IMG/VR virus record: IMGVR_UViG_3300025018_000091
DNA from: a virus
Taxonomy: Duplodnaviria; Caudoviricetes
Direction: 5' to 3' (one strand)
Length of the DNA: 64,000 bases
The number at the start of each line of letters is the position of its first letter. Within the stretch, counting starts at the first letter, position 1. The notes under the pieces were generated by a model that had not been told where the DNA came from, made no database searches, and saw only the letters and a program-made list of their open reading frames with translations. Both the position numbers and the translations under genes were made by a program. Of the stretch, positions 27,809-42,357 are shown in pieces.

Positions 27809-27901
27809 AGGGAACTAAAGGATTCGAACCTCTTTATACTTCTTGTATGTCTTTCCTGCTGGATAGGTATGCATCCCACACCAAACTTAAACGAAGTTCC
27901 C
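27809..27901 (-). tRNA. degenerate tRNA-like element with long variable arm
   Basis: perfect acceptor GGGAACT/AGTTCCC, T-arm AGAGG-TTCGAAT-CCTTT; anticodon arm poor. Confidence 0.45.
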
Positions 27902-28182
27902 TAAATGCCAGTTTTATTCAACAGACAGCTAAACACACATGATTCAATAGCCATAGTTATCAACGGGGAGACCTGGCAACTCGCCTGACTTCCATTAACT
28001 ATTATTCATGTGCCGCTAGAACCATGCACTTGCCACAGTCATACCAGGCTGCTTCCCAAAGGTATGAATGGTTCTCTTACCAGCCTCAAGCCAACGAAAA
28101 AGAGAAACGAAACATTTTTTACAAAAATCAAAATCTTCAATGTTTCTTGTCTCTCCACCTATATTTGCGCAATCCCAACCTT

Positions 28183-28256
28183 TGGGCACACCGATACGAT
28201 TCGAACGTACCATCTCCCTCAAAACAATAGGGGTTTTACCATTAAGCTAGGTGTGC
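28183..28256 (-). tRNA. tRNA-like family copy A (aberrant anticodon loop)
   Basis: GCACACC/GGTGTGC, TAGCTTAATGGTAAA D-arm, TTCGAAT T-loop. Confidence 0.55.
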
Positions 28257-28290
28257 TTTATTAGATTTTAAAAAAGATTAACGCAAGGTT

Positions 28291-28719
28291 TTATTTTTGA
28301 ACCCATTTAACTTTATCTGGGTTTGTATTGTATTCTTTTTCAACCAACTTACCAATAGCTTCACTAGCCCATTCAGCAATAGTTGGTTTACTTTCAATTC
28401 GTCCAAAAACAGTTACACTAATAAACTCTTGATTATTATGTATAGCTGCTGCAAGACGATGATTTCCATCAGATACAATTCCAATGCCATCTCTCGGAGG
28501 CTCTAATAAAATATCACCTTTCCAACCATTTACAACAAAATAAGCTATCCTCCTAATATGCGTAACTCTATCAACTTTTTTCTTAATAGGACAAGACTCA
28601 AAACACTTCTGTTTAATTGCTGTTTCGATCTCGTTATTAGTAATAGGATAATCAATACTCCAAGAAGGAGTTTTGAATGGGTTGTAAATTTCTTCTAACA
28701 ACTTGACAGGAATGTACAT
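28291..28719 (-). CDS. ParB/Srx-like N-terminal domain protein
   Basis: IVSDGNHRLAAA. Confidence 0.65.
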   Translation of the reverse strand: MYIPVKLLEEIYNPFKTPSWSIDYPITNNEIETAIKQKCFESCPIKKKVDRVTHIRRIAYFVVNGWKGDILLEPPRDGIGIVSDGNHRLAAAIHNNQEFISVTVFGRIESKPTIAEWASEAIGKLVEKEYNTNPDKVKWVQK

Positions 28720-28829
28720 TTTATCTTTTCCTTGCATTCAACAAACGAATTGGAAATTTTCTCATTCGTGGAGAATCGAACTCCATATTCCGGTGTAGAG
28801 AATACCATCGAGCCATATGCAAGCCCATT

Positions 28830-28903
28830 TAGGCACACCAACATGATTCGAACATGCTTTCTTCCCAAGGCTATTGGGGGCTTTCCCATTAAGCTAGGTG
28901 CGT
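28830..28903 (-). tRNA. tRNA-like family copy B (aberrant anticodon loop)
   Basis: same scaffold as copy A plus the same 25-nt upstream sequence. Confidence 0.5.
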
Positions 28904-29272
28904 TTTTAGATTTTAAAAAAGATTAACGCATCCATTGGCTGCGCGTTTGCTGCCAGCCCCATTGCTTTACACAATGGCGGAACATTCGTCACCTTACTTT
29001 CATTTCTATTTGGTTTTTCTAACATCAAGTTCTTTTCTCTAATCAGCCATATATAAAATTTGTCAAGTTACATTTGTGGGCGGGTCACGAATGCTTATCA
29101 TATTTTATTCCTTTAGTTGATTAACTGATTTACAGCCACGTCAGTACGTGGTTGGTTGCCAACCTATTACCATCACGCGAATATCCATTGTCACAGACAA
29201 CGATACCGGCAGATCGACGGAATTGAACCGCTGCTTCCTACACGCCGCTTTCGCTGTGTAGTCTAAACCTAT

Positions 29273-29737
29273 TCAGATTGAATTACCACAATTCCAACAG
29301 ACATTCACACCAACATCATTCATCCGAGAACAATGCGGACAAGAAAATTCTTCTCTGATCTTTGCAGCAGGTAGCACGGCTGTTGCTTCTGTTGTTGTAA
29401 TTACTTTCTCTTCATTCAACAGAATTTTTCTTGTGTGTTGTGAACGAATTGACTGCGAAAAAACAGTAACATACATGTACCCACAATAACCATTCATGTT
29501 ATTTGGTATCTCATTGTATGCATCTAGAGCAGCTAGGAACTTATTAGACCTAATGAAATTAGATACTTTATCGAATTCTTTCATTAGTTCTGGTTGGTTT
29601 GGATCACGGGCAAAATTGATTATGTCAGCGATCTCATCCATTGCTGCATACATGGCTGATTTTTCAGAATCAAAGATAAATCGACTTGAATCGAAATCAT
29701 CCTCACAACTAACTTCAAGAATGTACACTTCGCTCAT
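29273..29737 (-). CDS. protein with CW-x-CG Zn-ribbon tail
   Basis: paralog of 26342; ends CPHC..VCWNCG; GAGG RBS. Confidence 0.7.
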   Translation of the reverse strand: MSEVYILEVSCEDDFDSSRFIFDSEKSAMYAAMDEIADIINFARDPNQPELMKEFDKVSNFIRSNKFLAALDAYNEIPNNMNGYCGYMYVTVFSQSIRSQHTRKILLNEEKVITTTEATAVLPAAKIREEFSCPHCSRMNDVGVNVCWNCGNSI

Positions 29738-29892
29738 GTTACCTCTATGACATAAAAGAACTAGCACCTTCTTTTTTGCTTCAGCGGGTAAAGAAGGGCA
29801 TAGAAACCTATAAGTTCTTTTGTGGACAAGTAGGGAATCGAACCTTGTCCAATTTCAAGAAAGTAATCAGCCACTTGCGAATGTGATTCATG

Positions 29893-30147
29893 TCAGTTCA
29901 CATCTCCATTGTCTGGAACTTCATGACCTTCAACATCCAATGTCTGCAATGAATCAATCGCAGACTTGAACATCAATGCAGCTCGAAGCTCAGTGATTGT
30001 ATCAACTGCCAAAACAACAATCACTGAAAGATTCACAATTGCTTTCTCCAATTGTTCTTTGGTTGCCGTTCCCGAACGAACAAGCAGAACCGCATCGCGC
30101 GCAGTTTCCAACGCTTTGTTTGAAGTCATTCCTTTTGAATCAATCAT
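29893..30147 (-). CDS. helical hypothetical protein
   Basis: GGAGG RBS. Confidence 0.7.
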   Translation of the reverse strand: MIDSKGMTSNKALETARDAVLLVRSGTATKEQLEKAIVNLSVIVVLAVDTITELRAALMFKSAIDSLQTLDVEGHEVPDNGDVN

Positions 30148-30168
30148 ATGTATTCCTCCTATGTTGAT

Positions 30169-30267
30169 TGGTGCTGGAGCGGGGATTCGAACCCTGCTAT
30201 TCCCCTATATAAAAAGGGCGTTTTAACCGGCAAACCATCGCGAATGGTTTATGCCAAACTCCCCAGC
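30169..30267 (-). tRNA. tRNA with UAU anticodon (Ile) and a 27-nt hairpin inserted in the D-loop
   Basis: acceptor GCTGGGG/CTCCAGC, A73, CCA, anticodon loop TTTATAT, T-loop TTCGAAT. Confidence 0.6.
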
Positions 30268-30269
30268 AT

Positions 30270-30435
30270 AAATGTGCGAGTTATCCTACCGCACACTGGG
30301 TCGAGTCTTGTCCCAGAGGACTGTATTGGGAATTCACACATGTTATTGTGAACTGCTCCTTTCGGAGTCACATCTGCGGAATAGGTACAGGTCCATGTGT
30401 TACTGCAATACGGGTTCTGCTATTCATCCTGCTAC
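30270..30435 (-). ncRNA. candidate structured RNA between two tRNAs
   Basis: CTCC-GAAA-GGAG, GTGCG..CGCAC and GTCC..GGAC hairpins; no convincing ORF. Confidence 0.35.
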
Positions 30436-30439
30436 TCGG

Positions 30440-30510
30440 TGGGTCCACAGGAAGTCGAATCCTGATTAACGGGTTAAAAGCCCGCTACTCTGCCATTGAG
30501 TTATAGACCC
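30440..30510 (-). tRNA. tRNA-Lys(UUU)
   Basis: canonical cloverleaf, GCGGG-CTTTTAA-CCCGT; no encoded CCA. Confidence 0.85.
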
Positions 30511-30539
30511 GTATGATAGGATACACCCACATCAATGCC

Positions 30540-30715
30540 ATTACGACTCCGTAGTTATATCTAACGCTCGAATGCTTTCGCATTCGATCAGCTTTCGCTG
30601 ACACTATCATTGCGGCTTTACAAGCGGTCTGCCTTTTTTGGGGAAACGACGCCCCTTCAATCATAGGTTATTTGCTTATACCTACTAGCTAAGAGTTACT
30701 TAGCGCGTCATTTTT
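30540..30715 (-). ncRNA. candidate structured RNA with adjacent GAAA tetraloop hairpins
   Basis: TCAGC-GAAA-GCTGA directly followed by TCGAATGC-GAAA-GCATTCGA; further stems. Confidence 0.45.
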
Positions 30716-30722
30716 TGTATTT

Positions 30723-31040
30723 TTATTCATCGGCATCTGATTGATTAAACAAAGAAGAACAATTAAGTAGAATTAGTTGAATTTCACGTTTCAATTCAGG
30801 TGAAGAATATTTTCCTGTTCCTAGGCTTTTGTCAATTTCAATGAATTCTTCCATAGAATATTTTTTTTCCAAAGAAGAGTATTGACACTCACAGTCTTGT
30901 GAAGGAAAATCACATTTACTCATGAAATTATCTTTCATAGACTGAGGATAATGATTATTATTTAATTCAGTATTGTTGCAACCAATGATAAATCCGAGTG
31001 CAAGCGCAGCCGCAATGGTTAGTTTTGTAGTTTTAGTCAT
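30723..31040 (-). CDS. lipoprotein
   Basis: LALGFIIGC lipobox; C..C.C motif. Confidence 0.7.
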   Translation of the reverse strand: MTKTTKLTIAAALALGFIIGCNNTELNNNHYPQSMKDNFMSKCDFPSQDCECQYSSLEKKYSMEEFIEIDKSLGTGKYSSPELKREIQLILLNCSSLFNQSDADE

Positions 31041-31054
31041 TTTATAAACCTTTA

Positions 31055-31306
31055 CTATCTCAACCAGACACATTCGTAATCTGGATTCATGTAGAAATCA
31101 GTGTCCGCACTCGCAAAAATGTTCCCCGTACGCTTGTTGATTCCAATACTGTAAATCCAAACCCCTCGATTCGGATCACAATAATCAAAACCATACCCAC
31201 TCTCAAGATACTTCCCTAGACGATACATCCCAGGATATACCTCTTTCCCAATCTTCGAAACATCAATCGCATCTCCACTATTAATGAGTCGATTCATGTA
31301 ATCCAT
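31055..31306 (-). CDS. hypothetical protein
   Basis: DYCD..RGVWIYSIG..FY.NPDYECVWLR. Confidence 0.7.
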   Translation of the reverse strand: MDYMNRLINSGDAIDVSKIGKEVYPGMYRLGKYLESGYGFDYCDPNRGVWIYSIGINKRTGNIFASADTDFYMNPDYECVWLR

Positions 31307-31307
31307 A

Positions 31308-32219
31308 CTAAACCTCCGTAGGATCGTTTGTTCCACATCTCCAACAAGGTGTTTCACCCATATTCAAACGAGTGCCACAAACCTTGCATTGAGAATCGTT
31401 TGCATTGATAATTACATTCAACAATGCTTTTGTTTCTTCGTGGAAAGCAACAACTTCATCTTTCTCTTCAATCTCCTCTTCATCTTCATCCTCAGACTCA
31501 TCATCCTCAGATACATTCAAAAGATGCTCCTCATCTTTGTGAACGAATACACTCCAATGGGAGTCGAATTGCTCAACAGAATCAATGTTGAATAGGAACC
31601 TACTGATTCCCTTCCCTCTCAATTCTTTGGCAATATCCGCCGGATCATCATGCTGACCAGGATACCAACCAGATGCATACAAATCTTCATTGATTCGAAT
31701 GTATCCATAATTGGAAGGATCAATCTCGTCCATGGTATTCGCAATATTCTCGTTATCTTCTAGCTCCTCAAGATAATTTTCAGGATCCTCCTGAAGACAA
31801 TCAATGCAAGTATATCCACAGCCCTGTTCAGAATAGAAGTAGCTGGGAGTCCAATGATAGGAGTCAGCTTTATGACGGACTAGCTTTCCACAATCAGAAC
31901 ACGAAATCCATTCATCAGACCACTCACACTCAATACCCATCTTCTCAAACAAGTCTGCAATTCTCCTAGGAAGATCCGATACATGTGTGGTTTGTTTTGT
32001 CTGCCAGTCATACGAGTCAATCTTATTCCAGTTACCCGTAGCCACAAGTCCAGAATCGCCAGCATCATAACCAGGCTCAGCATATCTCTCATAGTGAAGC
32101 TGAATCTCTTCGATTCGATTCTCCACATTAGTGCTAATGTTTGAAGCCATGCTTGCAGCAATCTCTAAGATTCGCTCAGCACGCCTTGCTATATTATGTT
32201 GTCTTTCGTCGCTATTCAT
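31308..32219 (-). CDS. acidic protein with internal Zn finger and CW-x-CG Zn-ribbon tail
   Basis: EWSDEWISCSDC; ends CKVCG..GETPCWRCG. Confidence 0.8.
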   Translation of the reverse strand: MNSDERQHNIARRAERILEIAASMASNISTNVENRIEEIQLHYERYAEPGYDAGDSGLVATGNWNKIDSYDWQTKQTTHVSDLPRRIADLFEKMGIECEWSDEWISCSDCGKLVRHKADSYHWTPSYFYSEQGCGYTCIDCLQEDPENYLEELEDNENIANTMDEIDPSNYGYIRINEDLYASGWYPGQHDDPADIAKELRGKGISRFLFNIDSVEQFDSHWSVFVHKDEEHLLNVSEDDESEDEDEEEIEEKDEVVAFHEETKALLNVIINANDSQCKVCGTRLNMGETPCWRCGTNDPTEV

Positions 32220-32229
32220 GCTAACACCC

Positions 32230-32252
32230 TTGCCCCGGTTACTCGATGGGGC
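32230..32252 (-). promoter_or_regulatory. GCCCC-N13-GGGGC element, copy 4
   Basis: TTGCCCCGGTTACTCGATGGGGC. Confidence 0.7.
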
Positions 32253-32560
32253 GACGACTCCATGAATTAATTAACAGTAATGTAACCCCATTTTCGCATA
32301 GTTTGCTTTCGTCTCTTCAACCGTGCTTTTATGCAATTGTTCGATTGCTTCAGGAACCTTAGTCAAAAGGAAAAAAACCTTTCTAGTTCATGCGGCTCAA
32401 AACAATCTCCCAATTGCACCGATGCACGTTCAATGTAATGAGCAATTTCTGCCTCATCTGTGCAAAGACCACAAGTATGTCCCTCTATGGTATAGTTCTT
32501 ATCACATTCACAATCAACACAGATAGGTGCATTCATGATTTTTCTCCTTTAAAAGATTGA

Positions 32561-32758
32561 GAGAGTGTAGCTAGACCTTGCTCACAGCCAAACATAGGAA
32601 TATTAAATTCCTTTGGAATAGCCATTTCCAATCAAACCGCTAAGGAGGAACACACATTATTCGCGGCTATATAGGTATATAGCGTCAAACACTCTCGGAC
32701 GATAAAACAGGAATCGAACCTGTTTTCTATTCCGTTCAGCTTATGCCTCGGAATCGTC
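32561..32758 (-). ncRNA. candidate structured RNA: tRNA-like minihelix followed by a multibranch domain
   Basis: GACGAT/ATCGTC enclosing AAAACAGG-TTCGATT-CCTGTTTT; GAGAGTGT/ACACTCTC enclosing three hairpins. Confidence 0.45.
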
Positions 32759-33117
32759 ATACCAATAGACTATTATCGTACAGTACATTTACTTGGTGCA
32801 TACTGAGGAGTTGAACCTCAACCTGCATAATTCCAATAGCCATGGCTATTTTTGTAGAACCAGGCGCCGCCCACGACGAATGCATATCCACGTTTTTATT
32901 AAGCAAGAAACGTGGAAAACTCCGAGGCAGATCTTTTTGCCCAAAAGATTGGCTCACACAAGAAAAAGGGCTTTCTTGATGTACCTCAAGAAATCGCTAG
33001 AAAGGGCTATAGACTTACACCAAATCTCATTTACTACCCTTTGATTATCCATATGGTGCATCACTGCCGAATAGTAAACCGCTTGGCGCACGCGCCTAGA
33101 TAAAAAAAGTATCTAAG

Positions 33118-33212
33118 CAAGTTAGTGAATCTATGGATCAATACCTGCTTACACAGTAAACATTTCTTAGATTCCCCATAGACATCTCGTAACTGCGATT
33201 TTCACTAACTTA
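33118..33212. ncRNA. candidate structured RNA or nested inverted repeat
   Basis: AAGTTAGTGAA/TTCACTAACTT enclosing TCTATGG/CCATAGA. Confidence 0.35.
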
Positions 33213-33222
33213 CTAGTCTCTA

Positions 33223-33546
33223 CTAGAAATGCCCACAATATCCAAATCCATCGGACTTGTAGGTTTTTTCCTCAATCTTAGGGAAACCATCCTCATACAT
33301 CTCTGTAGCAGATTCCCCAAACACATGCTTCCATATCTCTCCATCCTTCACCCCAAGATAGAAAACATGCGATGCGTTATGCCCAACAACATAGAAGTCA
33401 ATGCCTTGCTGCTGACATGATCGAGGCTCCAAACTCTGAATATACTCCAGATGAAGCTCAATCACAGATGCCAATAGCTCATCACCCTTGGCAAACTTCA
33501 TAGCAAGCTTTTGTCGCTTCTGATAAATATCTTTCGGCTTCGACAT
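33223..33546 (-). CDS. hypothetical protein
   Basis: track ORF. Confidence 0.6.
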   Translation of the reverse strand: MSKPKDIYQKRQKLAMKFAKGDELLASVIELHLEYIQSLEPRSCQQQGIDFYVVGHNASHVFYLGVKDGEIWKHVFGESATEMYEDGFPKIEEKTYKSDGFGYCGHF

Positions 33547-33883
33547 GTGTTCGTGCTTTCTTGATTGGTCGCCGGTTTGGAACCGGTTTGTTACACCAAC
33601 GCTTGAAATCCTTACCCATATGCTTCTTTTTCGCTCGGATAAGAATCATTGCTTCAACCAATGGGAGATCCCCTCGTACTTGATTGCAAGCAAAGTGAGA
33701 AGGAGCTAGATTAGAACTTCCACACCCACCCTTGGAACGTAGAATCAAATGCTCCCTCGTGATCGATTCCATGTTGTCGAATGGTTCCCCGCACAATATA
33801 CACAAGCCATCCCATTTGTATAGTATTGTGCGGTATCCTTCATAAGGATCAAACTCTTTCTGTTGTTTCTCTGCACTACGCAT
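33482..33883 (-). CDS. HNH endonuclease-like protein
   Basis: CILCG..TREHLILRSKGG..NLAPSHFACN. Confidence 0.75.
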   Translation of the reverse strand: MRSAEKQQKEFDPYEGYRTILYKWDGLCILCGEPFDNMESITREHLILRSKGGCGSSNLAPSHFACNQVRGDLPLVEAMILIRAKKKHMGKDFKRWCNKPVPNRRPIKKARTHVEAERYLSEATKACYEVCQG

Positions 33884-34160
33884 GAGCACGTCGATCCTTG
33901 ATCGGATTCTCCGAATCATAAGGATATCCAATCGACTCCAAGTATTCCAAATACTCAGGAGCAGGCTCACCAAGGAAATATGTCGAACCACTCAATGTTT
34001 TGATGATTCGACCATTCACTTCCACAATCGGGCTTGTGATTACTGGACGAGGATCGTCATCACGATACCCCACCAAACAAACCGGATTGATCTCAGGTGC
34101 CAAGAATAGATCGTCTGACCTATATGACACTCCCCACTTCTCCAGCTGATATTCACCCAT
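33876..34160 (-). CDS. hypothetical protein
   Basis: VITSPI..IKTLSGSTYFLG. Confidence 0.7.
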   Translation of the reverse strand: MGEYQLEKWGVSYRSDDLFLAPEINPVCLVGYRDDDPRPVITSPIVEVNGRIIKTLSGSTYFLGEPAPEYLEYLESIGYPYDSENPIKDRRAHA

Positions 34161-34350
34161 GTTCGCACCTCATTGCAATTGCTTCCGCAACGGAAGGCTC
34201 GGGTTCTGTGTGAATTGTTTCGTCGCTCCAAAGGTACATTCCAGTAGTCAACATCAATTGACCCCTTTCATCTACCTCAATTTCGTACTCATTGTAATGA
34301 ATACGAACAAGAAGCTCCCGATCAAAATCGGATATGTTCTCGATCTTCAT
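34153..34350 (-). CDS. hypothetical protein
   Basis: 3' part of track ORF. Confidence 0.55.
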   Translation of the reverse strand: MKIENISDFDRELLVRIHYNEYEIEVDERGQLMLTTGMYLWSDETIHTEPEPSVAEAIAMRCEHG

Positions 34351-34534
34351 CTTGTTCCTCGGGATGCATGTAGAAGTAATCATCCGTGGCATCTACCCTC
34401 GAACGAAACTCCTCATAAATCCCCGCTTGAATCAGTTGAACACGCAAAAGTTCCCATGCCTTACCAGATATCCCATATCCTTCAGGATCCATTAGCAAGG
34501 CTTCTGTCAACTCCCTCAACTCATTCTTGTTCAT
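34322..34534 (-). CDS. hypothetical protein
   Basis: track ORF, ATGA overlap. Confidence 0.65.
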   Translation of the reverse strand: MNKNELRELTEALLMDPEGYGISGKAWELLRVQLIQAGIYEEFRSRVDATDDYFYMHPEEQDEDREHIRF

Positions 34535-34719
34535 TTGCGAACGTACCTTTCCAGATGACCAATCAAAACATCATCCTCCATGTAAAAAAGGTCATCCTCT
34601 ACCGGAAGTGCATTCTCCAATAATTGACCAAGACGAAGATTCGGCTTGCTCAACCACGCTACCATTATCCGCTGAATAATGGCTTTCTTATCTTCAGCCG
34701 TTTCCGCGCGTCCCTTCAT
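34531..34719 (-). CDS. small conserved phage-type protein (PxLRLGQL)
   Basis: AWLSKPNLRLGQLL..DLFYMEDD. Confidence 0.65.
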   Translation of the reverse strand: MKGRAETAEDKKAIIQRIMVAWLSKPNLRLGQLLENALPVEDDLFYMEDDVLIGHLERYVRK

Positions 34720-34951: not shown

Positions 34952-35026
34952 TGGGCGCACCGATACGATTCGAACGTATCAACTTCCCCAAAACAATTAG
35001 GGGCTTTACCATTAAGCTAGGCGCGC
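34952..35026 (-). tRNA. tRNA-like family copy C (aberrant anticodon loop)
   Basis: GCGCGCC/GGTGCGC; nearly identical to copy A. Confidence 0.55.
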
Positions 35027-35543: not shown

Positions 35544-35792
35544 TCACAGATACTTGGGCGCGAAATGTCGCTCGACAATCTCCTTGCCCATTTCCACCAT
35601 CTCTTCCTTGGTCTTCCCACTCGCATACAGCTTTCCACTGATGCTCGGAGAATCATCCGTGTCGAAAGAGAAGTGAACCTCTCCACTGTAATCAGACCAA
35701 ACCTTGGCGGAAACCTTGTCTCCTTCCAAGACATGCTGATCAACCTTGTATCCACAATCACTTCTACCTTCAACCAAATTCCAGCTTGCCAT
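35544..35792 (-). CDS. hypothetical protein, tandem paralog
   Basis: GGAGG RBS; similar to 35089..35496. Confidence 0.8.
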   Translation of the reverse strand: MASWNLVEGRSDCGYKVDQHVLEGDKVSAKVWSDYSGEVHFSFDTDDSPSISGKLYASGKTKEEMVEMGKEIVERHFAPKYL

Positions 35793-35850
35793 GTGTGTAC
35801 CTCCTAGTTATGAATTCTCAAGTTTACACATTACACTCATCCATCATGGA

Positions 35851-36387
35851 TTATTCGTAATGCGGTCGCGGCGTTCGTTCGCCCGGATGTTCCTCAACTA
35901 CAATCATGATATCTATACCACCAAGCACAGAATAGATGTTTCCTTCTCGTCGCTCACCATAGATCGATTCCAAATGAGCCTTGAACGTTTCCACCTGTGA
36001 TTGATCAACCGCTTCCAAGTGGTATCCCCACTTGCACAACTCGTACTTCTCTCCAGTCTCATGGTAAACTACACCCTCACGAGCACAAGAACAATTATGA
36101 CAATAGTCCTTATGCCCCTCAACCGAAATTGCCTTGACCGGAATGGATGCAATCGGCTCGTGATGATTGAACCACCAACCACCCTCCTCCGGTCCACCAT
36201 AATGACGAGTCACCTCATAAGCATTCACATACAACAATGCCTCAGAACCAGGCTTCACGTAATCATCTGGTGGACATTCACATTCACCATCCTCATCAGG
36301 AATTGCTCCACAACAAGAACAACCATGATAGTATGATGCCAATCCTTGATCCAAATCGCCCTGTTCGTCGTAACATTGATTACACAT
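35851..36387 (-). CDS. hypothetical protein with Cys clusters
   Basis: YVNAYEVTRHYGGPEEGGWWF. Confidence 0.75.
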   Translation of the reverse strand: MCNQCYDEQGDLDQGLASYYHGCSCCGAIPDEDGECECPPDDYVKPGSEALLYVNAYEVTRHYGGPEEGGWWFNHHEPIASIPVKAISVEGHKDYCHNCSCAREGVVYHETGEKYELCKWGYHLEAVDQSQVETFKAHLESIYGERREGNIYSVLGGIDIMIVVEEHPGERTPRPHYE

Positions 36388-36428
36388 GATTGACTCTCCA
36401 ATCCGTTATCGTTGCTGTACCTACTACC

Positions 36429-36451
36429 TTGCCCCCCTCACTCGATGGGGC
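36429..36451 (-). promoter_or_regulatory. GCCCC-N13-GGGGC element, copy 5
   Basis: TTGCCCCCCTCACTCGATGGGGC. Confidence 0.7.
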
Positions 36452-36456
36452 ACGGC

Positions 36457-36762
36457 TCAGTAGCCCTGACTCCATGACTTTCCAGCTTCCAGCCATACAC
36501 TCATAACCGCTTCCTTTGCTTCCTTCAGTGCAAGACCAGTAAGCTCACGCACAGCCTTAATCTGCGCAATCTTATCATTAGGATTGTTCAAACATACAAC
36601 CATTAAAGCCCTGACTTCAGGCAATGCAATCAGCTTTGACACATTGGCTTTGACTTCAAGAGCTTCCTCAGCTACGTTCAACTCCGAACGCAAACGCCCT
36701 TTGTCCATCGACAACGCTTCAATTCTATCAAGCAGTTTCTCAACAACGTCTTCTTCGTACAT
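36457..36762 (-). CDS. coiled coil fused to ribosomal bL12 (L7/L12) C-terminal-like domain
   Basis: DKIAQIKAVRELTGLALKEAKEAV. Confidence 0.75.
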   Translation of the reverse strand: MYEEDVVEKLLDRIEALSMDKGRLRSELNVAEEALEVKANVSKLIALPEVRALMVVCLNNPNDKIAQIKAVRELTGLALKEAKEAVMSVWLEAGKSWSQGY

Positions 36763-36766
36763 GTGT

Positions 36767-37147
36767 TTATCCCTCGAAAAGTTTGATTTCTCGTACTTCG
36801 AACTTGTAAGTCCTATCGTGGTTTGACCATTCGCTTGCGGCTTGTTTGGCTTGATGTACCGAATCGTATACAGCCAGACCATTACCTTGGTATTTTGACG
36901 CAACTCGAATAACTAAACCATCCTTTGGATCAATCACAAGTACACCATACACCGGATCCTTTCCCATATGGAAGATTTGCTTATTGGTACTTGTCTGAAT
37001 AGGTGCATCTTCATCTCTCAGATTCTGACGAATCGACTTACGATACGATTCATCATCCTCCGGCAAACCAAGACCTTGATACCGAGAAATACCTTGCGAT
37101 TCCCCATACTTATCAAGTTCCTTACCTGTCAATGAATTGAGATCCAT
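36767..37147 (-). CDS. hypothetical protein
   Basis: track ORF. Confidence 0.6.
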   Translation of the reverse strand: MDLNSLTGKELDKYGESQGISRYQGLGLPEDDESYRKSIRQNLRDEDAPIQTSTNKQIFHMGKDPVYGVLVIDPKDGLVIRVASKYQGNGLAVYDSVHQAKQAASEWSNHDRTYKFEVREIKLFEG

Positions 37148-37158
37148 GTGTTTGTCCT

Positions 37159-37446
37159 TTAGCCAGTATACATGATTGAAGCATCACTCATCGCTTGCGC
37201 AAATGAGTATGGTTTCCATGCAGATGATTCTGACCACATTCGTCGATAGGACCATTCTCCATCAGATGTGACTCGATAGATCGTATCGAAGAACTTTTCG
37301 AAATTGTCCGAAATGGTAACGGAACCATCATCCTGCTCTTCAATGAAAAGCAAGTCATCCACGAATGACTTATCATCAGGTTCATTCCAAACTTGACGCG
37401 CATTCTTTTTGACCGCTTCCGAAAACTCTTGTACTTGCTTGTTCAT
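37159..37446 (-). CDS. hypothetical protein
   Basis: GGAG before MNKQVQ. Confidence 0.65.
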   Translation of the reverse strand: MNKQVQEFSEAVKKNARQVWNEPDDKSFVDDLLFIEEQDDGSVTISDNFEKFFDTIYRVTSDGEWSYRRMWSESSAWKPYSFAQAMSDASIMYTG

Positions 37447-37560
37447 TGGTTTTTCTCCCAATTTCAGAAACTTGCTCACGAGCACGCCGCTGCAATGCTT
37501 CATGAACTTCTTGCCATGAACCATGTTTTAAGACATACTCATATTCCATGCCGCCTCCTA

Positions 37561-37944
37561 TTAGATGGGTTGAATCTCTTCTCGGGCTTCCAGCTTACGC
37601 ACGTACTCCTTCTGCTCTTCAAAGGTGAGCTTTGATAGCTCATCCATGAATGTTCCAATACGTTCGTAAACCATGCCTTGCTCCAATTCCCATGGAGTTG
37701 TCATGTTCTCAGCAGCACAGAAGGCAAAACCCTCTCCATCAGGATCATCATTCATGTTCTTGATGGTCTGCTGAACGGACTTGTACGCCATCTCAGACGC
37801 AACTTCATGCAATCGATCATTGAAGTCCGTTTCCTCATCCACTTGACCAGTGTTACCACAATGATAACAGGCGTCTTGAACCATACGCCCATCCTCTTCA
37901 TAGTATTCCCAACCAGTCCCACCACACCTTAAACACTCACACAT
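37561..37944 (-). CDS. DnaJ-type Zn-finger protein
   Basis: CLRCGGTG..CYHCGNTG. Confidence 0.75.
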   Translation of the reverse strand: MCECLRCGGTGWEYYEEDGRMVQDACYHCGNTGQVDEETDFNDRLHEVASEMAYKSVQQTIKNMNDDPDGEGFAFCAAENMTTPWELEQGMVYERIGTFMDELSKLTFEEQKEYVRKLEAREEIQPI

Positions 37945-37975
37945 GATAATTTTCCCTTTTAGAGAAAAGTGAATG

Positions 37976-38173
37976 TTACTTTCTCTCTTCTCGCTCTTGA
38001 ACAAGAAGCGAAATTAGCTTTTGACGCGCAGCGTCAGATAAAGCCACTTGAAAGCCACCATTGAATGTCAATAGAACGCCCTTGTCCTTGTCATTCGACT
38101 CATTCAAAAGAACCCACATCTGTGAGCCTCCATAACATTCAATGAGATTCTCTCTACTTGGCTTTTTCCACAT
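37976..38173 (-). CDS. hypothetical protein
   Basis: track ORF. Confidence 0.6.
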   Translation of the reverse strand: MWKKPSRENLIECYGGSQMWVLLNESNDKDKGVLLTFNGGFQVALSDAARQKLISLLVQEREERK

Positions 38174-38244
38174 GTCTCTTACCCTTTTAGAAGCGTTGCA
38201 AACTGGGAATGTTAAGACCGAATTGATCTAATCCTGTGAAGCAG

Positions 38245-38316
38245 TGGGTCCAGAGGGACTTGAACCCTCAACTCTCGGGTTAAAAGCCCGTTACTCTACC
38301 ATTGAGTTATGAACCC
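38245..38316 (-). tRNA. tRNA-Lys(UUU), second copy
   Basis: canonical cloverleaf, CGGG-CTTTTAA-CCCG, GAGGG-TTCAAGT-CCCTC; 5' end overlaps the upstream stop. Confidence 0.9.
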
Positions 38317-38507
38317 ATGCGGCTAAACCGCAACCGATCAAGCATATCAACCAATTCATATGGTCGAAAGTCTTTCAAGTCTATCCAACCACGTCTCTCT
38401 GATTCTTCTGGTATTGGACCAGAAAGAAGTTCATCTAACTCCTCATCAGTTGGATAGATAAAATTATCCTCAAGAATATTGCGTAATTGTCCCTTTCTAG
38501 TATTCAT
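38307..38507 (-). CDS. hypothetical protein
   Basis: 3' part of track ORF. Confidence 0.55.
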   Translation of the reverse strand: MNTRKGQLRNILEDNFIYPTDEELDELLSGPIPEESERRGWIDLKDFRPYELVDMLDRLRFSRMGS

Positions 38508-38952
38508 TGTCGTAACGAGTTTCCATGTATTCCATGTAACGCTCGTCTTCATTCCAATGCTCGTAAGGGCGCATCATTCTTGTACCCAAATCCGAAAGCA
38601 ATTCCTCAATCACTTCAATTCTATCGTGATCGATTCGAGCTTTCTTATTCACCTCTTCGTAGAAGTCATCAATCGCCTTCTGACGAATGGCAGATAGTTC
38701 TTCCTTGGTGATATTCGGATTCTTCTCCTCAGCTTCACACTCAGCGTCATATGCCAAGTCTTGTGCTTGCTCAGCAAGATAATCCGCTTCGTCATGCCTC
38801 TCATCATCAGAGACCCATGACTTCTGCTCAATCTTCTGATGATATTCATTCCACTCAGAAGCGAGCTTGGACACCATCTCACGACGAATCGTACTTTTGA
38901 GAGTTTCCTCCCCAGTCTCGTCATACTCACCATCCATTACGAATCCACGCAT
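38497..38952 (-). CDS. acidic helical protein
   Basis: start MRGFVMDG; ends RPYEHWNEDERYMEYME. Confidence 0.75.
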   Translation of the reverse strand: MRGFVMDGEYDETGEETLKSTIRREMVSKLASEWNEYHQKIEQKSWVSDDERHDEADYLAEQAQDLAYDAECEAEEKNPNITKEELSAIRQKAIDDFYEEVNKKARIDHDRIEVIEELLSDLGTRMMRPYEHWNEDERYMEYMETRYDNEY

Positions 38953-38978
38953 GACTTTTCTCTTGTTAGAGAATAGAT

Positions 38979-39068
38979 TGGTAGCAGAGGTTGGATTCGA
39001 ACCAACATAATAATACGTCCTCGGATCCAAGGATATGTGCCACCAGATCCAACCTGGTTAACTCTGCT
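38979..39068 (-). tRNA. degenerate tRNA-like element with encoded CCA
   Basis: AGCAGAG/CTCTGCT, A73, CCA, GTTGG-TTCGAAT-CCAAC; anticodon loop not 7 nt. Confidence 0.5.
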
Positions 39069-39077
39069 AAATAAGGA

Positions 39078-39134
39078 CAGTTTTAGAACTTACCCCAGGT
39101 TCAAAGGTAGTTTTGGAACTTACCCTCAAGGTTC
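39078..39134. repeat. two tandem copies of AGTTTT(A/G)GAACTTACCC..GGTTC (third copy 42947..42971)
   Basis: direct comparison. Confidence 0.7.
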
Positions 39135-39294
39135 AAGATTAAGTCCATGACATATAGATACAAATATGACCAAAAAATTAGGACGCTATTACTAAACGTA
39201 TCCATACAACCGTCCTACATGTATGGCGTTATGACGAATCTGTTTGAAGGGCTAAGGGCAGAGTCGATTCACTTCTGCCCCATAACCCTATGAT

Positions 39295-39681
39295 TCAGCT
39301 TGCGGGCTTGGGCTCGGGCTGGTCTGCCCAACGGCAAACTCCACCACCCTTTCCCTTCCCGATATGGAAGGGAGCACCCGAATCGCGCTCGCCAGCACGA
39401 TCCCGAATGTAAGCCTGGACCTTTTCGGTCAAGGTCTTGAAGTTCTCGGGCTGAACATTCATGCGCTGAACCGCCATGCTGGTGATGGCAGGCATATTCA
39501 GCTTTGCCCCAGGGTATTGGTCGAAGACTGCATTGACAGCTTCTCCCACAGCTTCAGCTTCCAATTCCCTTTCGGTCTGGAAACGAAGCAGATCCCCGGA
39601 GAACTTTCGCTCGGTTCCTTCGAGATCGATGGAACCATCGGGATTCCGAACACAGTAGCTTTGCAGATTGATGGTCGTCAT
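39295..39681 (-). CDS. putative winged-helix protein, paralog of 42997..43356
   Basis: CVRN.DGSI..AV.AVFD..KGKGGGV; GGAGG RBS. Confidence 0.8.
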   Translation of the reverse strand: MTTINLQSYCVRNPDGSIDLEGTERKFSGDLLRFQTERELEAEAVGEAVNAVFDQYPGAKLNMPAITSMAVQRMNVQPENFKTLTEKVQAYIRDRAGERDSGAPFHIGKGKGGGVCRWADQPEPKPAS

Positions 39682-39778
39682 GATGACACCTCCCACGGAA
39701 TGAATCCTTGGCGCTTATCATGCTGAGAATCGACACAATTCGATTGCCATTGACTCGCGCCGTGTTGTACTACTTGGC

Positions 39779-40109
39779 TTGCCCCCGTCACCTGATGGGG
39801 TACCGCTTTCCGTTCCCAGCGAAACAACATCGTTTCGCATCGAATCGCGGCAACCAACATCGCCTCCCTTGCCCCGGTCACCTGATGGGGTAGGTCAGTT
39901 CCGCTCACAGCGGAAAACAACAGGGTTACGTTCGCAGCGGAATCCGTCATTCCGTTCCCGCTGCAACGCGCCGTCCTACAAGGGCATAATTGCCCCCGTC
40001 ACCTGATGGGACAGGCATTCCGTTCCCAGCGGAACGTTGCCTCCCCGTCGCCGTTCGTTGCTGCGTCGCATCGAACACAACCTACCTTGCCCCGGTCACC
40101 TGATGGGGC
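39779..40109 (-). promoter_or_regulatory. four tandem GCCCC-N13-GGGGC elements (39779, 39869, 39990, 40087; copies 6-9)
   Basis: 23-mers TTGCCCC(C/G)GTCACCTGATGGG(G/A)(C/T); three are preceded by a CGCTG.GA.CGGAA motif. Confidence 0.8.
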
Positions 40110-40117
40110 AGGCATCC

Positions 40118-40324
40118 TGGCACGATCCTTGCTACGCACGTCGCGCGCGCGCAGATCATGAGGTATCCCGATCTTGGCACGCTTGCATATTGCGAGAATC
40201 ATGCCATAACCTTTTGACCCTACGTATAGCGGCACATAATGTCACGCCACATATGGTCAATCCCCGGCTTGCGGCTCGTCGTCGCATGGTGGCACGATTG
40301 TCGCACCTTGCAATCGGCGTGCCA
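40118..40324. promoter_or_regulatory. cluster of sigma54-type GG-N10-GC motifs (40118+, 40191..40206-, 40290+, 40309..40324-)
   Basis: e.g. TGGCACGATCCTTGCT, TGGCACGCCGATTGCA. Confidence 0.6.
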
Positions 40325-40508
40325 GCGCTCGCCGAAAGCCAAAAAACCCATATCCCCAAAAGTCCAGAATTAGAGAGAATCTGGAACCCCTGGAAGGATA
40401 GAGGGGATGGGTAAATGCGGGCGGGGTAAAATTCCGCTCCCACTGGACGTGGGAGCGGATGCACAGAACGTGCTCTGAAAGCAGACATGGGGAATGAATG
40501 CTAAAAAC

Positions 40509-40703
40509 TTAGCTGATATGCAGCGTGTGAATCATTCGGCGCAATTGAATTCGTTCCATTCGCGCACGTCGAGCTTCACCGATTCCCCTTTCCTCGCACA
40601 AGGCTAGGAATTGGAACCCTCGTTCAGCTTCAATGCGCTCCCGACGTGCAGATTCACTCATTGATGAGAATGCAGAACCCCTTTCAGAAGTTTTCGAATC
40701 CAT
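40509..40703 (-). CDS. small basic protein
   Basis: track ORF. Confidence 0.45.
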   Translation of the reverse strand: MDSKTSERGSAFSSMSESARRERIEAERGFQFLALCEERGIGEARRARMERIQLRRMIHTLHIS

Positions 40704-40716
40704 CTGAATGGCTCCT

Positions 40717-41055
40717 TCAGATCATGGTCTTGAGTCGGAAAGCGTCAGCCCACAAGGCTTGCGTATCAGGATATGCACGATACCGCGAGCGACCGATTCT
40801 TTCGATGATTCCCTCATCTACCAACTTCTTGAGAGCGCCTCGAATGTCGCCCACTGAATAGAGCGAACCCAAACGCTTGTTCAAGTGTTCGGTCAAGTCA
40901 GAATCTTCCACGCCTTCATCGAATCGGCAAACTCCCCGAACGACCAAGGCACAACGATGCGCCATTCCATGGACAATTGTCGTTCGATCCGGTTCTGCGT
41001 AGACTTTGGTATCGTGTGTGTTGTAGGTTGTTTTCCTGCGAAACCTCATGTGCAT
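40717..41055 (-). CDS. winged-helix DNA-binding protein
   Basis: DIRGALKKLVDEGIIERIGRSRY; GGAG RBS. Confidence 0.65.
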   Translation of the reverse strand: MHMRFRRKTTYNTHDTKVYAEPDRTTIVHGMAHRCALVVRGVCRFDEGVEDSDLTEHLNKRLGSLYSVGDIRGALKKLVDEGIIERIGRSRYRAYPDTQALWADAFRLKTMI

Positions 41056-41086
41056 TCTCCTTGTTTCGAGTCAAGCTCTTTGGATG

Positions 41087-41503
41087 TTACAGTCTTGGCG
41101 TATACAAGAGCACGTTACTGCCCTCGTAAAACTCCTTCGCCTCTTTCAAACTACTACCCGTCAATTCGCGAACCTTCTTGATTGCGTTGATTCGATTGTC
41201 TGGAAACTCCTCTTTCAGAATCTGACGAATCTGATGATAAGAGGAATATCGCCTTTCGGAATAATCCCTCCCCATTACGAATAGACGCATGATCTCATTC
41301 TCCACTTGAGGCGAAAGATCCGGGGGAGAAAACGAATTCTTTTGCACAGGAGGAATCTTCGCGGTTTTCTTGAAGATCTCCAATTCCTGTTCAAGCTTCT
41401 TCAGATCATCCGTGGCAATAATCAGAGCACAATTCAAGGATGTATTCTCACGAATGAGATCATCCAAGTAAGACAATGGTACAGAAACTTTCACATCTTT
41501 CAT
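41087..41503 (-). CDS. coiled coil fused to ribosomal bL12 C-terminal-like domain
   Basis: NRINAIKKVRELTGSSLKEAKEFYE; GGAGG RBS. Confidence 0.75.
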   Translation of the reverse strand: MKDVKVSVPLSYLDDLIRENTSLNCALIIATDDLKKLEQELEIFKKTAKIPPVQKNSFSPPDLSPQVENEIMRLFVMGRDYSERRYSSYHQIRQILKEEFPDNRINAIKKVRELTGSSLKEAKEFYEGSNVLLYTPRL

Positions 41504-41644
41504 TCAATCCTCCCATCCATGACTTTTGTACTTCAATCTCGTAGGTGGAACCCGTCCATAGATCCATTCGTAGACTATTGCTAGACATACCAATGGACCT
41601 ATGACGAATATTGTGAGGAGAAGGTCAATTCTCTTGATCGTCAT
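41504..41644 (-). CDS. small membrane protein
   Basis: LLLTIFVIGPLVCLAIV; GGAG RBS. Confidence 0.55.
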   Translation of the reverse strand: MTIKRIDLLLTIFVIGPLVCLAIVYEWIYGRVPPTRLKYKSHGWED

Positions 41645-41819
41645 GCTCTCCCCAATCTTCCTCCATCCATTCGTTCTTGTTCCTGGGCGCCTTGTACTTC
41701 TTGGAATTGATCCTTGCCCCTCTGAGAGCTTCCCCCTTCGCTTGAAGGATTGCAAGCGTATTGCGTTCACGCTTGCGGGGGATCGTCAGGGTGAAGTGGA
41801 TTCCCTTTTTGCTTCCCAT
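41625..41819 (-). CDS. small basic protein
   Basis: GAGG before MGSKK. Confidence 0.5.
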   Translation of the reverse strand: MGSKKGIHFTLTIPRKRERNTLAILQAKGEALRGARINSKKYKAPRNKNEWMEEDWGEHDDQEN

Positions 41820-41958
41820 TGTCTTCCTCATAGTGGGTCAGATTCTTATTGATCTTATTCCCACAATCTGAACAGGTGTATCCGTAATCTGTTTTGACCA
41901 TACGCCTCATGCTATCACACACAAGGCAATATGGTCGCCAATCAGGTGAATGTGTCAC
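41767..41958 (-). CDS. small Zn-ribbon protein
   Basis: WRPYCLVC..CSDCG. Confidence 0.65.
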   Translation of the reverse strand: MTHSPDWRPYCLVCDSMRRMVKTDYGYTCSDCGNKINKNLTHYEEDNGKQKGNPLHPDDPPQA

Positions 41959-41963
41959 GGGGT

Positions 41964-42149
41964 TTAGTTCAAGGTTGTGTTCGGATTCGTAGCTAGTTGC
42001 TTCTGAAGATTCGACATCTTCTCAAGAACCAACTCGTAACACTTCTTGAGCAAGTATGCTGCATCCTCATCCGTGGGAGGAGGAGTAATCGCACCAGTCT
42101 TGACCAGAATGCCAGCAACGATAACAGCAGCAGCCATGAGAGGATCCAT
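41964..42149 (-). CDS. hypothetical protein
   Basis: GGAG RBS; directly downstream of element copy 10. Confidence 0.7.
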   Translation of the reverse strand: MDPLMAAAVIVAGILVKTGAITPPPTDEDAAYLLKKCYELVLEKMSNLQKQLATNPNTTLN

Positions 42150-42187
42150 CGTTTTCTCCGTTGTTTGTTTGCGTTACACACATTGGT

Positions 42188-42210
42188 TTGCCCCGCTCAC
42201 TCGATGGGGC
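42188..42210 (-). promoter_or_regulatory. GCCCC-N13-GGGGC element, copy 10
   Basis: identical to copy 1. Confidence 0.75.
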
Positions 42211-42282
42211 ATCGTTATACAGTCTCAGCGGAACTCGTATGATGGCACACGGAATGCAACGTGCAAACGGTGTACCACTCAG

Positions 42283-42357
42283 AGGAATGGTCAGGAATCG
42301 AACCTGCGTTGCCACTTACTCCCCCAATCCTATCACAGATCGAGGAATATCCATTCC
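42283..42357 (-). ncRNA. tRNA-like element (acceptor and T-arm only)
   Basis: GGAATGG/CCATTCC, CAGG-TTCGATT-CCTG; tRNA length but no canonical D or anticodon arm. Confidence 0.4.

Follow-up and report, generated by a model that had tools for sequence, protein, structure and literature searches.

Putative non-decoding tRNA mimics between early-type genes of a huge uncultured phage

The window, the whole 64,000-nt stretch of DNA that was analysed, belongs to a ~440-kb uncultured phage, and the minus strand of one of its regions carries two genuine tRNA-Lys genes and about ten genes for tRNA-shaped RNAs. Small early-type ORFs flank the elements, which lie on the gene strand; the next start codon is typically 25-50 nt downstream, and several elements encode ACCA or CCA. 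A blastn search of the region against 50,697 GenBank phage records yielded no near or distant DNA match; comparisons were made with related phage loci (L numbers). The features are as follows.

42997-43398, minus strand: paralog of the A2-family gene, matching the same gene of G001 as 39295-39696
42947-42964, minus strand: the same hairpin cassette as at 39078-39125, upstream of the F1 element
42842-42937, minus strand: 96-nt tRNA-shaped RNA of family F1, with orthologs in L073, L020, L074 and L053
42284-42357, minus strand: 74-nt tRNA-shaped RNA, a 7-bp acceptor and T arm around one long central hairpin
39295-39696, minus strand: gene for a mostly helical protein whose family (alignment A2) is uncharacterised
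39078-39125, minus strand: hairpin cassette in two tandem copies, ~10 nt upstream of the 5' end of 38983-39068
38983-39068, minus strand: 86-nt tRNA-shaped RNA, its acceptor perfect, with D-like and T arms; ACCA is encoded (to 38979)
38246-38316, minus strand: genuine tRNA-Lys(UUU), identified by Rfam (70.1 bits) and ARAGORN
34955-35026, minus strand: 72-nt member of family F2, a non-decoder; its acceptor has 7 bp and its T stem 6 bp, a D arm is present, and a hairpin occupies the anticodon position
32797-32884, minus strand: 88-nt structured RNA with T arm and CCA-type end
32699-32779, minus strand: 81-nt tRNA-shaped RNA with acceptor, D arm, anticodon stem and T arm intact
30441-30510, minus strand: second copy of genuine tRNA-Lys(UUU) (Rfam, 66.2 bits)
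30173-30267, minus strand: 95-nt tRNA-shaped RNA with ACCA end, two internal hairpins and T arm
28833-28903, minus strand: F2 paralog, first acceptor pair mismatched (ortholog at L080 16670-16741)
28760-28830, minus strand: decayed relic of a 65-nt tRNA-shaped element, T arm kept, acceptor pairing lost
28186-28256, minus strand: F2 paralog with a 4-bp stem and 9-nt loop at the anticodon position
27810-27901, minus strand: 92-nt tRNA-shaped RNA with perfect acceptor, T arm and a hairpin at the variable-arm position
6640-6718, minus strand: candidate further tRNA-shaped element with ACCA end

The only true tRNAs of the region are the two Lys-UUU genes, 30441-30510 and 38246-38316. In the window, ARAGORN called these two together with 28183-28255, 28832-28902 and 34952-35025, placing the anticodon of the latter three at position 31 and labelling them Asn, Ala and Thr. 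When the gathering threshold of Rfam family RF00005 (29 bits) was taken as the criterion for a canonical tRNA, it was passed only by the two tRNA-Lys genes and by 32699-32778 (34.6 bits, with a 16-nt insert); 38982-39068, 34955-35026 and 30180-30237 scored below it (24.8, 23.4 and 21.1 bits), and no RF00005 match at E <= 10 was reported for the remaining elements. The mimics share with canonical tRNA the acceptor stem, a T arm with a TTCRA loop, a GG-containing D loop, the discriminator position and sometimes an encoded CCA, and are clearly derived from tRNA genes; they differ in that a conserved 7-nt anticodon loop is absent, most fall below the Rfam threshold, and the anticodon arm is swapped among orthologs. 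A tmRNA was considered and rejected: ARAGORN called none, no element has a G3:U70 pair, and the Rfam tmRNA match spans 13 nt at 12419-12431, at chance level.

The motif GTTCRANTC occurs 22 times in the window, compared with 4.4 +/- 2.1 times in shuffled sequence, and so the T-loop motif is not a product of chance; 18 of the 22 copies are on the minus strand, 15 of these within 27.8-42.9 kb. A similar bias was seen in 559 kb of related phage DNA, where strict acceptor plus T-arm elements numbered ~51 on the gene strand versus ~2 on the antisense strand. Half of these strict elements were non-canonical, receiving no ARAGORN tRNA call.

Six of the elements had been singled out in an earlier note on this DNA, and all six were found where it had placed them, on the minus strand; acceptor stem and T arm are present in every one. 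The paired 7-bp acceptor ascribed to all of them is complete (7/7) in 27810-27901, 28186-28256, 34955-35026, 38983-39068 and 42284-42357, but 28833-28903 forms only 6/7 pairs, its first being an A/C mismatch. The TTCGA T-loop hairpin was seen as described, with a 5- or 6-bp stem (4/5 paired in 42284-42357) and a TTCGAAT or TTCGATT loop. As to the non-canonical D or anticodon arms, the anticodon arm is indeed altered, whereas the D arms are mostly kept rather than scrambled. Two supposed T-loop fragments, near 32710 and 42865, proved to be the T arms of the complete elements 32699-32779 and 42842-42937, and two complete elements, 30173-30267 (with its ACCA end) and 32797-32884, had been overlooked. 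The fragment near 28775 is part of the relic 28760-28830, in which the acceptor is broken; the counterpart at L080 16748-16812 retains 7/7 acceptor pairs. A further fragment, near 29220, lies within a conserved structured stretch, but its motif is not retained in the relative. The T-loop match near 29835 is probably due to chance, as the site holds a possible 27-codon ORF, pairs poorly and lacks the motif in the relative's sequence. The one near 12420 is a weak candidate, with 6/7 acceptor and 4/5 T-stem pairs but a z-score that is not significant. The candidate 6640-6718 adopts a cloverleaf-like minimum-energy fold, also with a z-score that is not significant, and is absent from G001.

Eight elements were compared with the corresponding elements of relatives, at a DNA identity of 70-82% between genes; orthology was set by blastn and synteny, not by structure, and ortholog sets were small (2-6 sequences). 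The upper half was 85% identical and the interior 56%, in agreement with the selective retention of the acceptor/T-arm half that had been proposed. Across the eight pairs of orthologs, 99 acceptor/T base pairs were scored: 74 were unchanged, 11 were changed on one side and kept, 8 were changed on both sides and kept, and 1 was broken in the relative; four stem pairs were mismatched solely in window copies. Thus 19/20 changed pairs were still paired, against 22% under random substitution, a proportion reached in 0/5000 simulations. In two ortholog pairs the acceptor and T arm were 100% identical, with flanks only ~75-80% identical. D stems covaried as well, and in several families the D stem and GG-containing D loop are kept, such that the whole L-shape with its elbow is conserved. 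In short, conservation or covariation extends over the upper half and elbow of the L: the acceptor stem, the T arm and, in most cases, the D arm. The anticodon loop is unconstrained or swapped out; the arm usually remains as a hairpin with an unconstrained loop, becoming in relatives another hairpin, a loop of 5-34 nt or an insert of 40-75 nt.

Individual families illustrate this pattern. F1 RNAs consist of an acceptor, D arm, T arm and a 5-bp anticodon-type stem closing a large insert, which in the relatives measures 40-75 nt and contains covarying stems whose loops repeat the 7-nt motif CUGAUCA; the window copy (42842-42937) has one U/U acceptor mismatch and a shorter insert, most of it having been lost. 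In F1, 10/20 pairs were changed on both sides with 93% of cells paired (0/500 shuffles matched this), and in F2, 9/17 pairs, the four D-stem pairs among them, were changed on both sides with 97.6% paired. Between 34955-35026 and its L033 ortholog the acceptor and T arm are 100% identical and 4/4 D-stem pairs differ on both sides; the ortholog has a 6-bp stem and 5-nt loop in place of the anticodon arm, at a locus that reads 'Thr UGU' in the window copy. In 42284-42357 both the D and anticodon arms are replaced by the central hairpin; acceptor, T arm and variable region are identical to those of the L073 ortholog, and the central stem differs, yet a 9-11 bp hairpin with a nearly unchanged loop forms in both. 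The L020 ortholog of 32699-32779 keeps all stems, with a 34-nt loop where the window copy has 16 nt instead of the usual 7. For 30173-30267, 29 consensus pairs shared with L080 11050-11142 include 4 changed on both sides and 0 broken; for 27810-27901, whose interior is only 37% identical to that of L080 19385-19482, 2 acceptor/T pairs are changed on both sides, 3 on one side and 0 broken. The 88-nt RNA at 32797-32884 and L020 18594-18681 share 87% identity, and changes in the T stem and in one inner helix are compensatory; read as a cloverleaf, the window RNA has one U/U acceptor mismatch, and an alternative 3'-end pairing is possible.

Elements have also been gained and lost between close relatives. 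No ortholog or sequence match of 38983-39068 was found in any related locus compared, and it is missing from the same slot in the closest relatives, L033 and L020. The tRNA-Lys gene at 30441-30510, with ~170 nt downstream, is an insertion relative to L080, which aligns to 30513 and resumes at 30271; the other, 38246-38316, is 98.7% identical in L023, with flanks of ~70%.

Because the upper half has been preserved by compensating mutations in related phages, we conclude that the roughly ten tRNA-shaped RNAs are working RNAs, selected as non-decoding tRNA mimics, rather than ordinary pseudogenes. Neutral decay in a plastic tRNA region could account for the relic 28760-28830, the sole element that behaves as decay predicts, for the four mismatches specific to window copies and for the turnover between close relatives; some members may indeed be decaying, given these mismatches and the relic. 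However, the earlier note had named decay spread evenly over all arms as the mark of ordinary pseudogenes, and changes were instead uneven, with the 19/20 figure, the invariant acceptor/T arms amid diverged flanks and the covariation in F1 and F2 all opposing it. The neutral reading is largely refuted, and we regard it as very improbable. Least probable of all is a role in decoding, as tRNAs whose anticodon loops are unusual or whose small introns are removed before use, although ARAGORN assigns anticodons to three F2 members, 32699-32779 exceeds the Rfam threshold and the window carries an RNA ligase gene. Both the 'anticodon' and its loop length (5, 7, 8 or 9 nt within F2; 16 vs 34 nt in 32699-32779 and its ortholog) vary while acceptor stems are identical, F2 lacks nucleotide 26 and has U at position 37, the inserts contain no conserved intron-like motif, and we know of no bacterial splicing route for such small introns. 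Loop lengths in orthologs, with the 40-75-nt F1 inserts, ruled out a canonical decoding tRNA with a conserved 7-nt loop, and the non-decoding character that the note had suggested holds.

Other alternatives accept the mimics as functional. They might serve as decoys or sponges that spare real tRNAs during infection, in keeping with conservation of precisely the upper half and with the presence of two tRNA-Lys(UUU) genes in the region and an RNA ligase gene in the window. Anticodon nucleases and uncharged-tRNA sensors read the anticodon loop, the part that is not conserved, and the mimics are therefore poorly suited as decoys for these factors, a use that had been put forward. Phage tRNAs and RNA ligase are known equipment against tRNA-cleaving defences (PMC10264068). 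Ten or so distinct acceptor sequences would nevertheless be an odd way of building one decoy; decoying, which would be compatible with processing, seems unlikely. We give similarly little credence to a natural tRNA scaffold, in which the frame would provide processing and stability and function would reside in a module inserted for the anticodon arm. The CUGAUCA-bearing inserts of F1 relatives and the nearly constant hairpin loop of 42284-42357 are consistent with it, and an engineered counterpart exists in the tRNA scaffold for recombinant RNA (PMC3753655), whose frame keeps tRNA-type processing and stability when other RNA replaces the anticodon arm. That scaffold is a laboratory construct, however, and the replacements in the window are mostly simple hairpins, not functional-looking modules; the window F1 copy has lost most of its insert, and in F2 and 32699-32779 the replacement drifts freely in sequence and length while the frame is invariant, which argues that the frame is the selected part. 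Equally doubtful is the proposal that huge phages keep anticodon-less tRNA upper halves as a counter-defence or RNP repertoire, with host tRNA enzymes maturing the RNAs.

The acceptor/T-arm part of tRNA is recognised by RNase P, by the CCA-adding enzyme and in 3'-end processing (RNase Z or exonucleases). Since this is the half retained, the likeliest candidate mechanism, as judged from shape, is excision of the mimics from the polycistronic RNA by the tRNA maturation enzymes. Excision by RNase P and 3'-end processing would release stable small RNAs, tRNA-like yet unable to enter decoding, and would also cut early transcripts just upstream of the next gene, giving defined mRNA ends as at plant-mitochondrial t-elements. 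The elements have the corresponding layout, lying between genes on the transcribed strand and combining an acceptor stem with a T arm in the geometry of tRNA. t-elements are tRNA-like structures in polycistronic or untranslated RNA that help form mRNA 5' and 3' ends, and the abstract of a paper on them discusses RNase P and RNase Z (PMC1920247). They are organellar with cleavage shown, whereas for the viral elements cleavage is inferred, and several phage elements, unlike t-elements, also keep a D arm and an anticodon-position hairpin. The earlier suggestion of processing punctuation is plausible, but many intergenic gaps lack an element and punctuation cannot be a general rule for this transcript. 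For the note's suggestion of recombination substrates the support is circumstantial, consisting of insertion/deletion breakpoints that adjoin several elements.

A2-family genes are often followed directly by a tRNA or tRNA-like element: such an element was found <=400 nt downstream in 14/44 A2 loci, with 1 upstream and 1 on the reverse complement. A2-family matches directly precede the F1 RNA in the window, L053, L072, L073 and L074; L020 has a 121-aa ORF at that slot. A Pfam search with the A2 protein gave no match, nor did a PDB fold search with its model (pLDDT 87) give a significant one. The cassette upstream of F1 is conserved in L020, L073, L074 and L053, with a covarying 4-bp stem. This conserved motif, which lies at the 5' end of F1 and of 38983-39068 or ~10 nt before it, could be a promoter, in which case RNase P would be unnecessary at these two elements.

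RNAC and RNAD of phage T4 have tRNA-like ends. Also termed species 1 and 2 RNAs, they are small RNAs among the T4 tRNA genes, with biological roles unknown (PMC3014915). The likeness of the mimics, as small RNAs amid phage tRNA genes, is positional and conceptual only; they show no sequence similarity, the region having no blastn match to GenBank phages, and they differ in number (~10 per 16 kb), in forming several unrelated families and in showing comparative evidence of selection. In YrlA, a bacterial Y RNA-like RNA, the Ro-binding stem is reportedly built from the termini and a loop closes the acceptor-like helix; in the mimics, as in tRNA, the termini pair into the acceptor stem. YrlA is a non-coding RNA outlined as mimicking the tRNA upper half (PMC4201824), and its Ro/TROVE partner protein is encoded by some jumbo phages (PMC7824862). 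A YrlA/Y RNA identity was rejected on these termini and on the lack of an Rfam match; no TROVE-size ORF was found in the window.

On balance, we lean towards the view that these genes derive from tRNA genes and specify non-decoding, tRNA-shaped RNAs, which selection has maintained in a clade of huge uncultured phages and which would be excised from polycistronic RNA as tRNAs are. A literature search, limited in reach, found no paper describing such mimics. The current explanations of phage tRNA genes are codon supply and escape from anticodon nucleases, and neither accounts for RNAs that keep just the non-decoding half of a tRNA. In this clade the mimics are about as many as true tRNAs and clearly under selection, which points to a sizeable class of phage non-coding RNA that tRNA finders miss or mislabel. 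If the mimics are processing signals, they would reveal the way in which giant phages arrange their long early transcripts; as decoys or scaffolds, they would add a new level to phage-host conflict and be nature's equivalent of a laboratory tool for RNA expression.

Each of the six tRNA-like elements proposed in an earlier note was confirmed, and all lie on the gene strand. ARAGORN called five genes in the window; three coincided with elements that the note had named (28183-28255, 28832-28902 and 34952-35025), and in these calls the anticodon fell at position 31, i.e., nucleotides were missing. The other two were true tRNAs, called by both methods:

30441-30510, true tRNA-Lys(UUU), Rfam 66 bits and ARAGORN
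38246-38316, true tRNA-Lys(UUU), Rfam 70 bits and ARAGORN

Element 32699-32778 reached 34.6 bits in Rfam, with a 16-nt insert in its anticodon loop, and the remaining elements scored at most 25 bits or not at all. A scan for a T arm with a 7-bp acceptor yielded more complete elements at 30173-30267, 32699-32779, 32797-32884 and 42842-42937. The T-loop motif GTTCRANTC was observed 22 times in the window versus 4.4 +/- 2.1 expected; 18 of the 22 were on the minus strand, the coding strand for genes across 1-48 kb, and 15 of those 18 lay within 27.8-42.9 kb. Several window elements encode ACCA, and the elements sit in intergenic gaps, mostly with the next start codon 25-50 nt downstream. Scans for sigma-70 promoters and for terminators stayed at chance level and defined no transcription units. 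The stretch 28760-28830 is a genuine decayed relic, no ortholog was found for 38983-39068, and 32797-32884 is the weakest cloverleaf reading, RNAalifold favoring other pairing of its 3' end. Weak extra candidates at 6640-6718 (-) and 12403-12466 (-) have a T-arm-like hairpin and 6/7 acceptor pairs; the former ends in ACCA and its minimum-energy fold resembles a cloverleaf, and neither was conserved in the related contig G001 or folded better than shuffles. At 29124-29265 (-), a 145-nt stretch that includes a GAAA-capped hairpin is 87% identical to 15791-15935 of the related locus L080, and is apparently a conserved, structured RNA of a non-tRNA-like kind.

Because no DNA match to the window, near or distant, was found among GenBank phages, no annotated relative could be used for comparison. 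The 54.7-97 kb stretch of G001, a 353,765-bp IMG/VR contig, is collinear with the window (protein identity 40-73%); closer relatives, all from metagenomes, are a 44-kb metagenome contig carrying loci L020 and L080, whose genes are 70-82% DNA-identical to the window, the loci L033 and L073, and 47 loci, some on contigs as long as 447 and 498 kb, that have one small gene family in common. A 444-kb contig carries a protein identical to a window protein. These relatives place the window in a clade of huge, uncultured phages. Its phage identity follows from PHROG and Pfam matches that include an RNA ligase, two radical-SAM proteins, HNH endonucleases and a full-length class I release factor; all but the endonucleases form a translation/RNA-repair toolkit typical of huge phages:

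5175-6263, 60512-61603, 2145-3152 and 9265-10176, all (-), RNA ligase, class I release factor and two radical-SAM proteins

The ligase has an N-terminal OB domain with a weak tRNA-binding-domain match, and the release factor has both PCRF and RF-1 domains. The G+C content of the window climbs steadily from 0.34 to 0.54 (46-48 kb) and is 0.28-0.30 past 50 kb, with GC skew flipping sign near 48 kb; the collinearity of G001 across the boundary argues against a chimeric assembly. An IMG/VR search with ORFs 29273-29767 and 26342-26908 gave zero matches.

Selection was assessed on eight ortholog pairs set by blastn and synteny, without use of structure. Among their 99 acceptor/T-stem pairs, 74 were unchanged, 11 were changed on one side and kept, and 8 were changed on both sides and kept; those broken were 1 in the relative only, 4 in the window only and 1 in both. 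Altered pairs were still paired in 19/20 cases versus 22% under an equal number of random substitutions (0/5000 simulations), figures drawn from small ortholog sets in which four mismatches are private to window copies. Identity over the eight pairs was 85% in the upper half (acceptor stem plus T arm) and 56% in the interior. Element 34955-35026 and its L033 ortholog show 100% identity in acceptor and T arm, 4/4 D-stem pairs are altered on both sides (GCTT/AAGC to TTGT/ACAA), and in L033 a 6-bp stem closed by a loop of 5 nt takes the place of the anticodon arm. Likewise, 42284-42357 and its L073 ortholog are identical in acceptor, T arm and variable region, and the central stem differs in sequence, yet forms a 9-11 bp hairpin in both; separate folds were used for this pair, two-sequence MAFFT/RNAalifold undercounting compensatory pairs through gap placement. 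Every stem of 32699-32779 is retained in L020, with a loop of 16 nt versus 34 nt. Against L080, 30173-30267 has 29 consensus pairs, 4 altered on both sides and 0 broken, and 27810-27901 has 2 altered on both sides, 3 on one side and 0 broken, with an interior only 37% identical.

Covariation per arm across related phages, a comparison suggested in the earlier note, was scored in two families. In F1 (42842-42937 and four relatives), 93% of cells were paired and 10/20 pairs were altered on both sides; 0/500 shuffles were as high, and slid alignments were at most 53% paired. In F2 (window paralogs 28186-28256, 28833-28903 and 34955-35026, plus two orthologs), 97.6% were paired and 9/17 pairs were altered on both sides. 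Owing to this covariation, the kept pairs and the unequal identities, the even decay over all arms expected of ordinary pseudogenes does not describe these elements. Together these comparisons show the elements to be tRNA mimics that are conserved, structured and non-decoding.

That they do not decode is seen in the anticodon arm. At one locus the window loop reads 'Thr UGU' and the L033 loop is 5 nt, with acceptor and discriminator identical; F2 loops measure 5, 7, 8 and 9 nt, and F1 carries 40-75-nt inserts on a 5-bp closing stem. The D arms, by contrast with the earlier note, are mostly not scrambled: a D arm with GG is retained in several families, along with the acceptor stem and a T arm with canonical loop. 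The retained portion comprises the elbow of the L-shape and its coaxial upper half, where tRNA is recognized by RNase P, RNase Z and the CCA-adding enzyme, all of which accept minihelix substrates. Since constraint is missing from the anticodon loop in particular, the elements are unlikely to serve as decoys for anticodon nucleases or for uncharged-tRNA sensors, uses that had also been proposed earlier.

Non-redundant related loci totaling 559 kb were screened under strict criteria (acceptor paired at 7/7, T stem at 5/5, TTCRA loop), which gave ~51 matches on the gene strand versus ~2 antisense, the antisense count serving as chance control. About half were called as tRNAs by ARAGORN (Lys, Ile, Leu and others), and the rest were non-canonical, 62-131 nt long. 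Further mimic types occur at G001 76683-76745 and 70137-70202 (L014), at L076 344-407 and in L054, L059 and L064; types in relatives include a 62-nt element without a D arm, 64-65-nt forms in which the anticodon arm is truncated, and a family in which that arm has a covarying stem capped by a GCAA tetraloop. Rfam has no family matching F1 or the L054, L059 and L064 elements located after the A2 gene, and gave no match to GOLLD or ROOL; assignment to YrlA, tmRNA or canonical tRNA likewise failed. Among phages, the nearest precedent comes from the T4 tRNA cluster: RNAC/RNAD, small RNAs whose role is unknown (PMC3014915) and which have no sequence relation to the window elements. A limited literature search turned up no account of a repertoire like this one in huge phages.

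Where the window differs from its closest relative (L080, L020) by insertions and deletions, the breakpoints adjoin tRNA-like elements:

28186-28935, breakpoint site
30271-30513, breakpoint site
32779-32797, breakpoint site

ORF 28291-28737, which matched only itself among 5.8 billion proteins, is flanked by two F2 copies sharing ~26 nt of upstream sequence; 30173-30267 has an insertion immediately on its 5' side, made up of a tRNA-Lys plus ~170 nt; and 32797-32884 and 32699-32779 are separated by 18 nt in the window versus ~1.4 kb of ORFs in L020. Recombination may use the elements as anchors. Integration sites (attP) were ruled out by the presence of both acceptor strands and of about ten elements in one phage.

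Some elements neighbor genes of an uncharacterized protein family, A2, represented in the window by:

39295-39696 (-), A2-family gene, no Pfam match
42997-43398 (-), A2-family paralog, no Pfam match

A tRNA or tRNA-like element lies within 400 nt downstream of the A2 gene in 14/44 loci, versus 1 upstream and 1 on the reverse complement. The F1 RNA directly follows an A2-family gene in the window, L053, L072, L073 and L074; in L020 a 121-aa ORF occupies this slot. An RNP of element RNAs with the A2 protein is possible; the protein model, a confident one (pLDDT 87), gave no PDB fold match at E <= 0.001, with only weak winged-helix-like rows. A conserved hairpin cassette precedes F1 and 38983-39068 (window 39078-39125, 42947-42964), consisting of a covarying 4-bp stem with a CTGGG-type loop, plus an A-rich tail that ends in TAT (window, L020, L073, L074, L053); that of F1 adjoins the acceptor 5' end in relatives and lies ~10 nt upstream in the window. 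It may be a phage-specific promoter, a leader element or part of the RNA; a sigma-54 reading was ruled out by spacing, judged by eye. F1 inserts in L020 (5651-5775), L073 (2084-2209), L072 and L053 bear a CUGAUCA loop once or twice on covarying stems, and the window copy lacks it; the self-complementary core could permit a loop-loop kissing contact. These repeated loops would suit natural tRNA scaffolds carrying a payload, a reading we consider improbable overall; it fits poorly with F2 and 32699-32779, where the replaced part drifts freely. Both the scaffold and the A2-RNP readings are compatible with excision.

Under the excision mechanism, which we consider the most likely and which has a precedent in plant-mitochondrial t-elements (PMC1920247), tRNA maturation enzymes would excise the elements from the transcript, yielding stable small RNAs, and the same excision would also sever the early transcript a short way before the following ORF.
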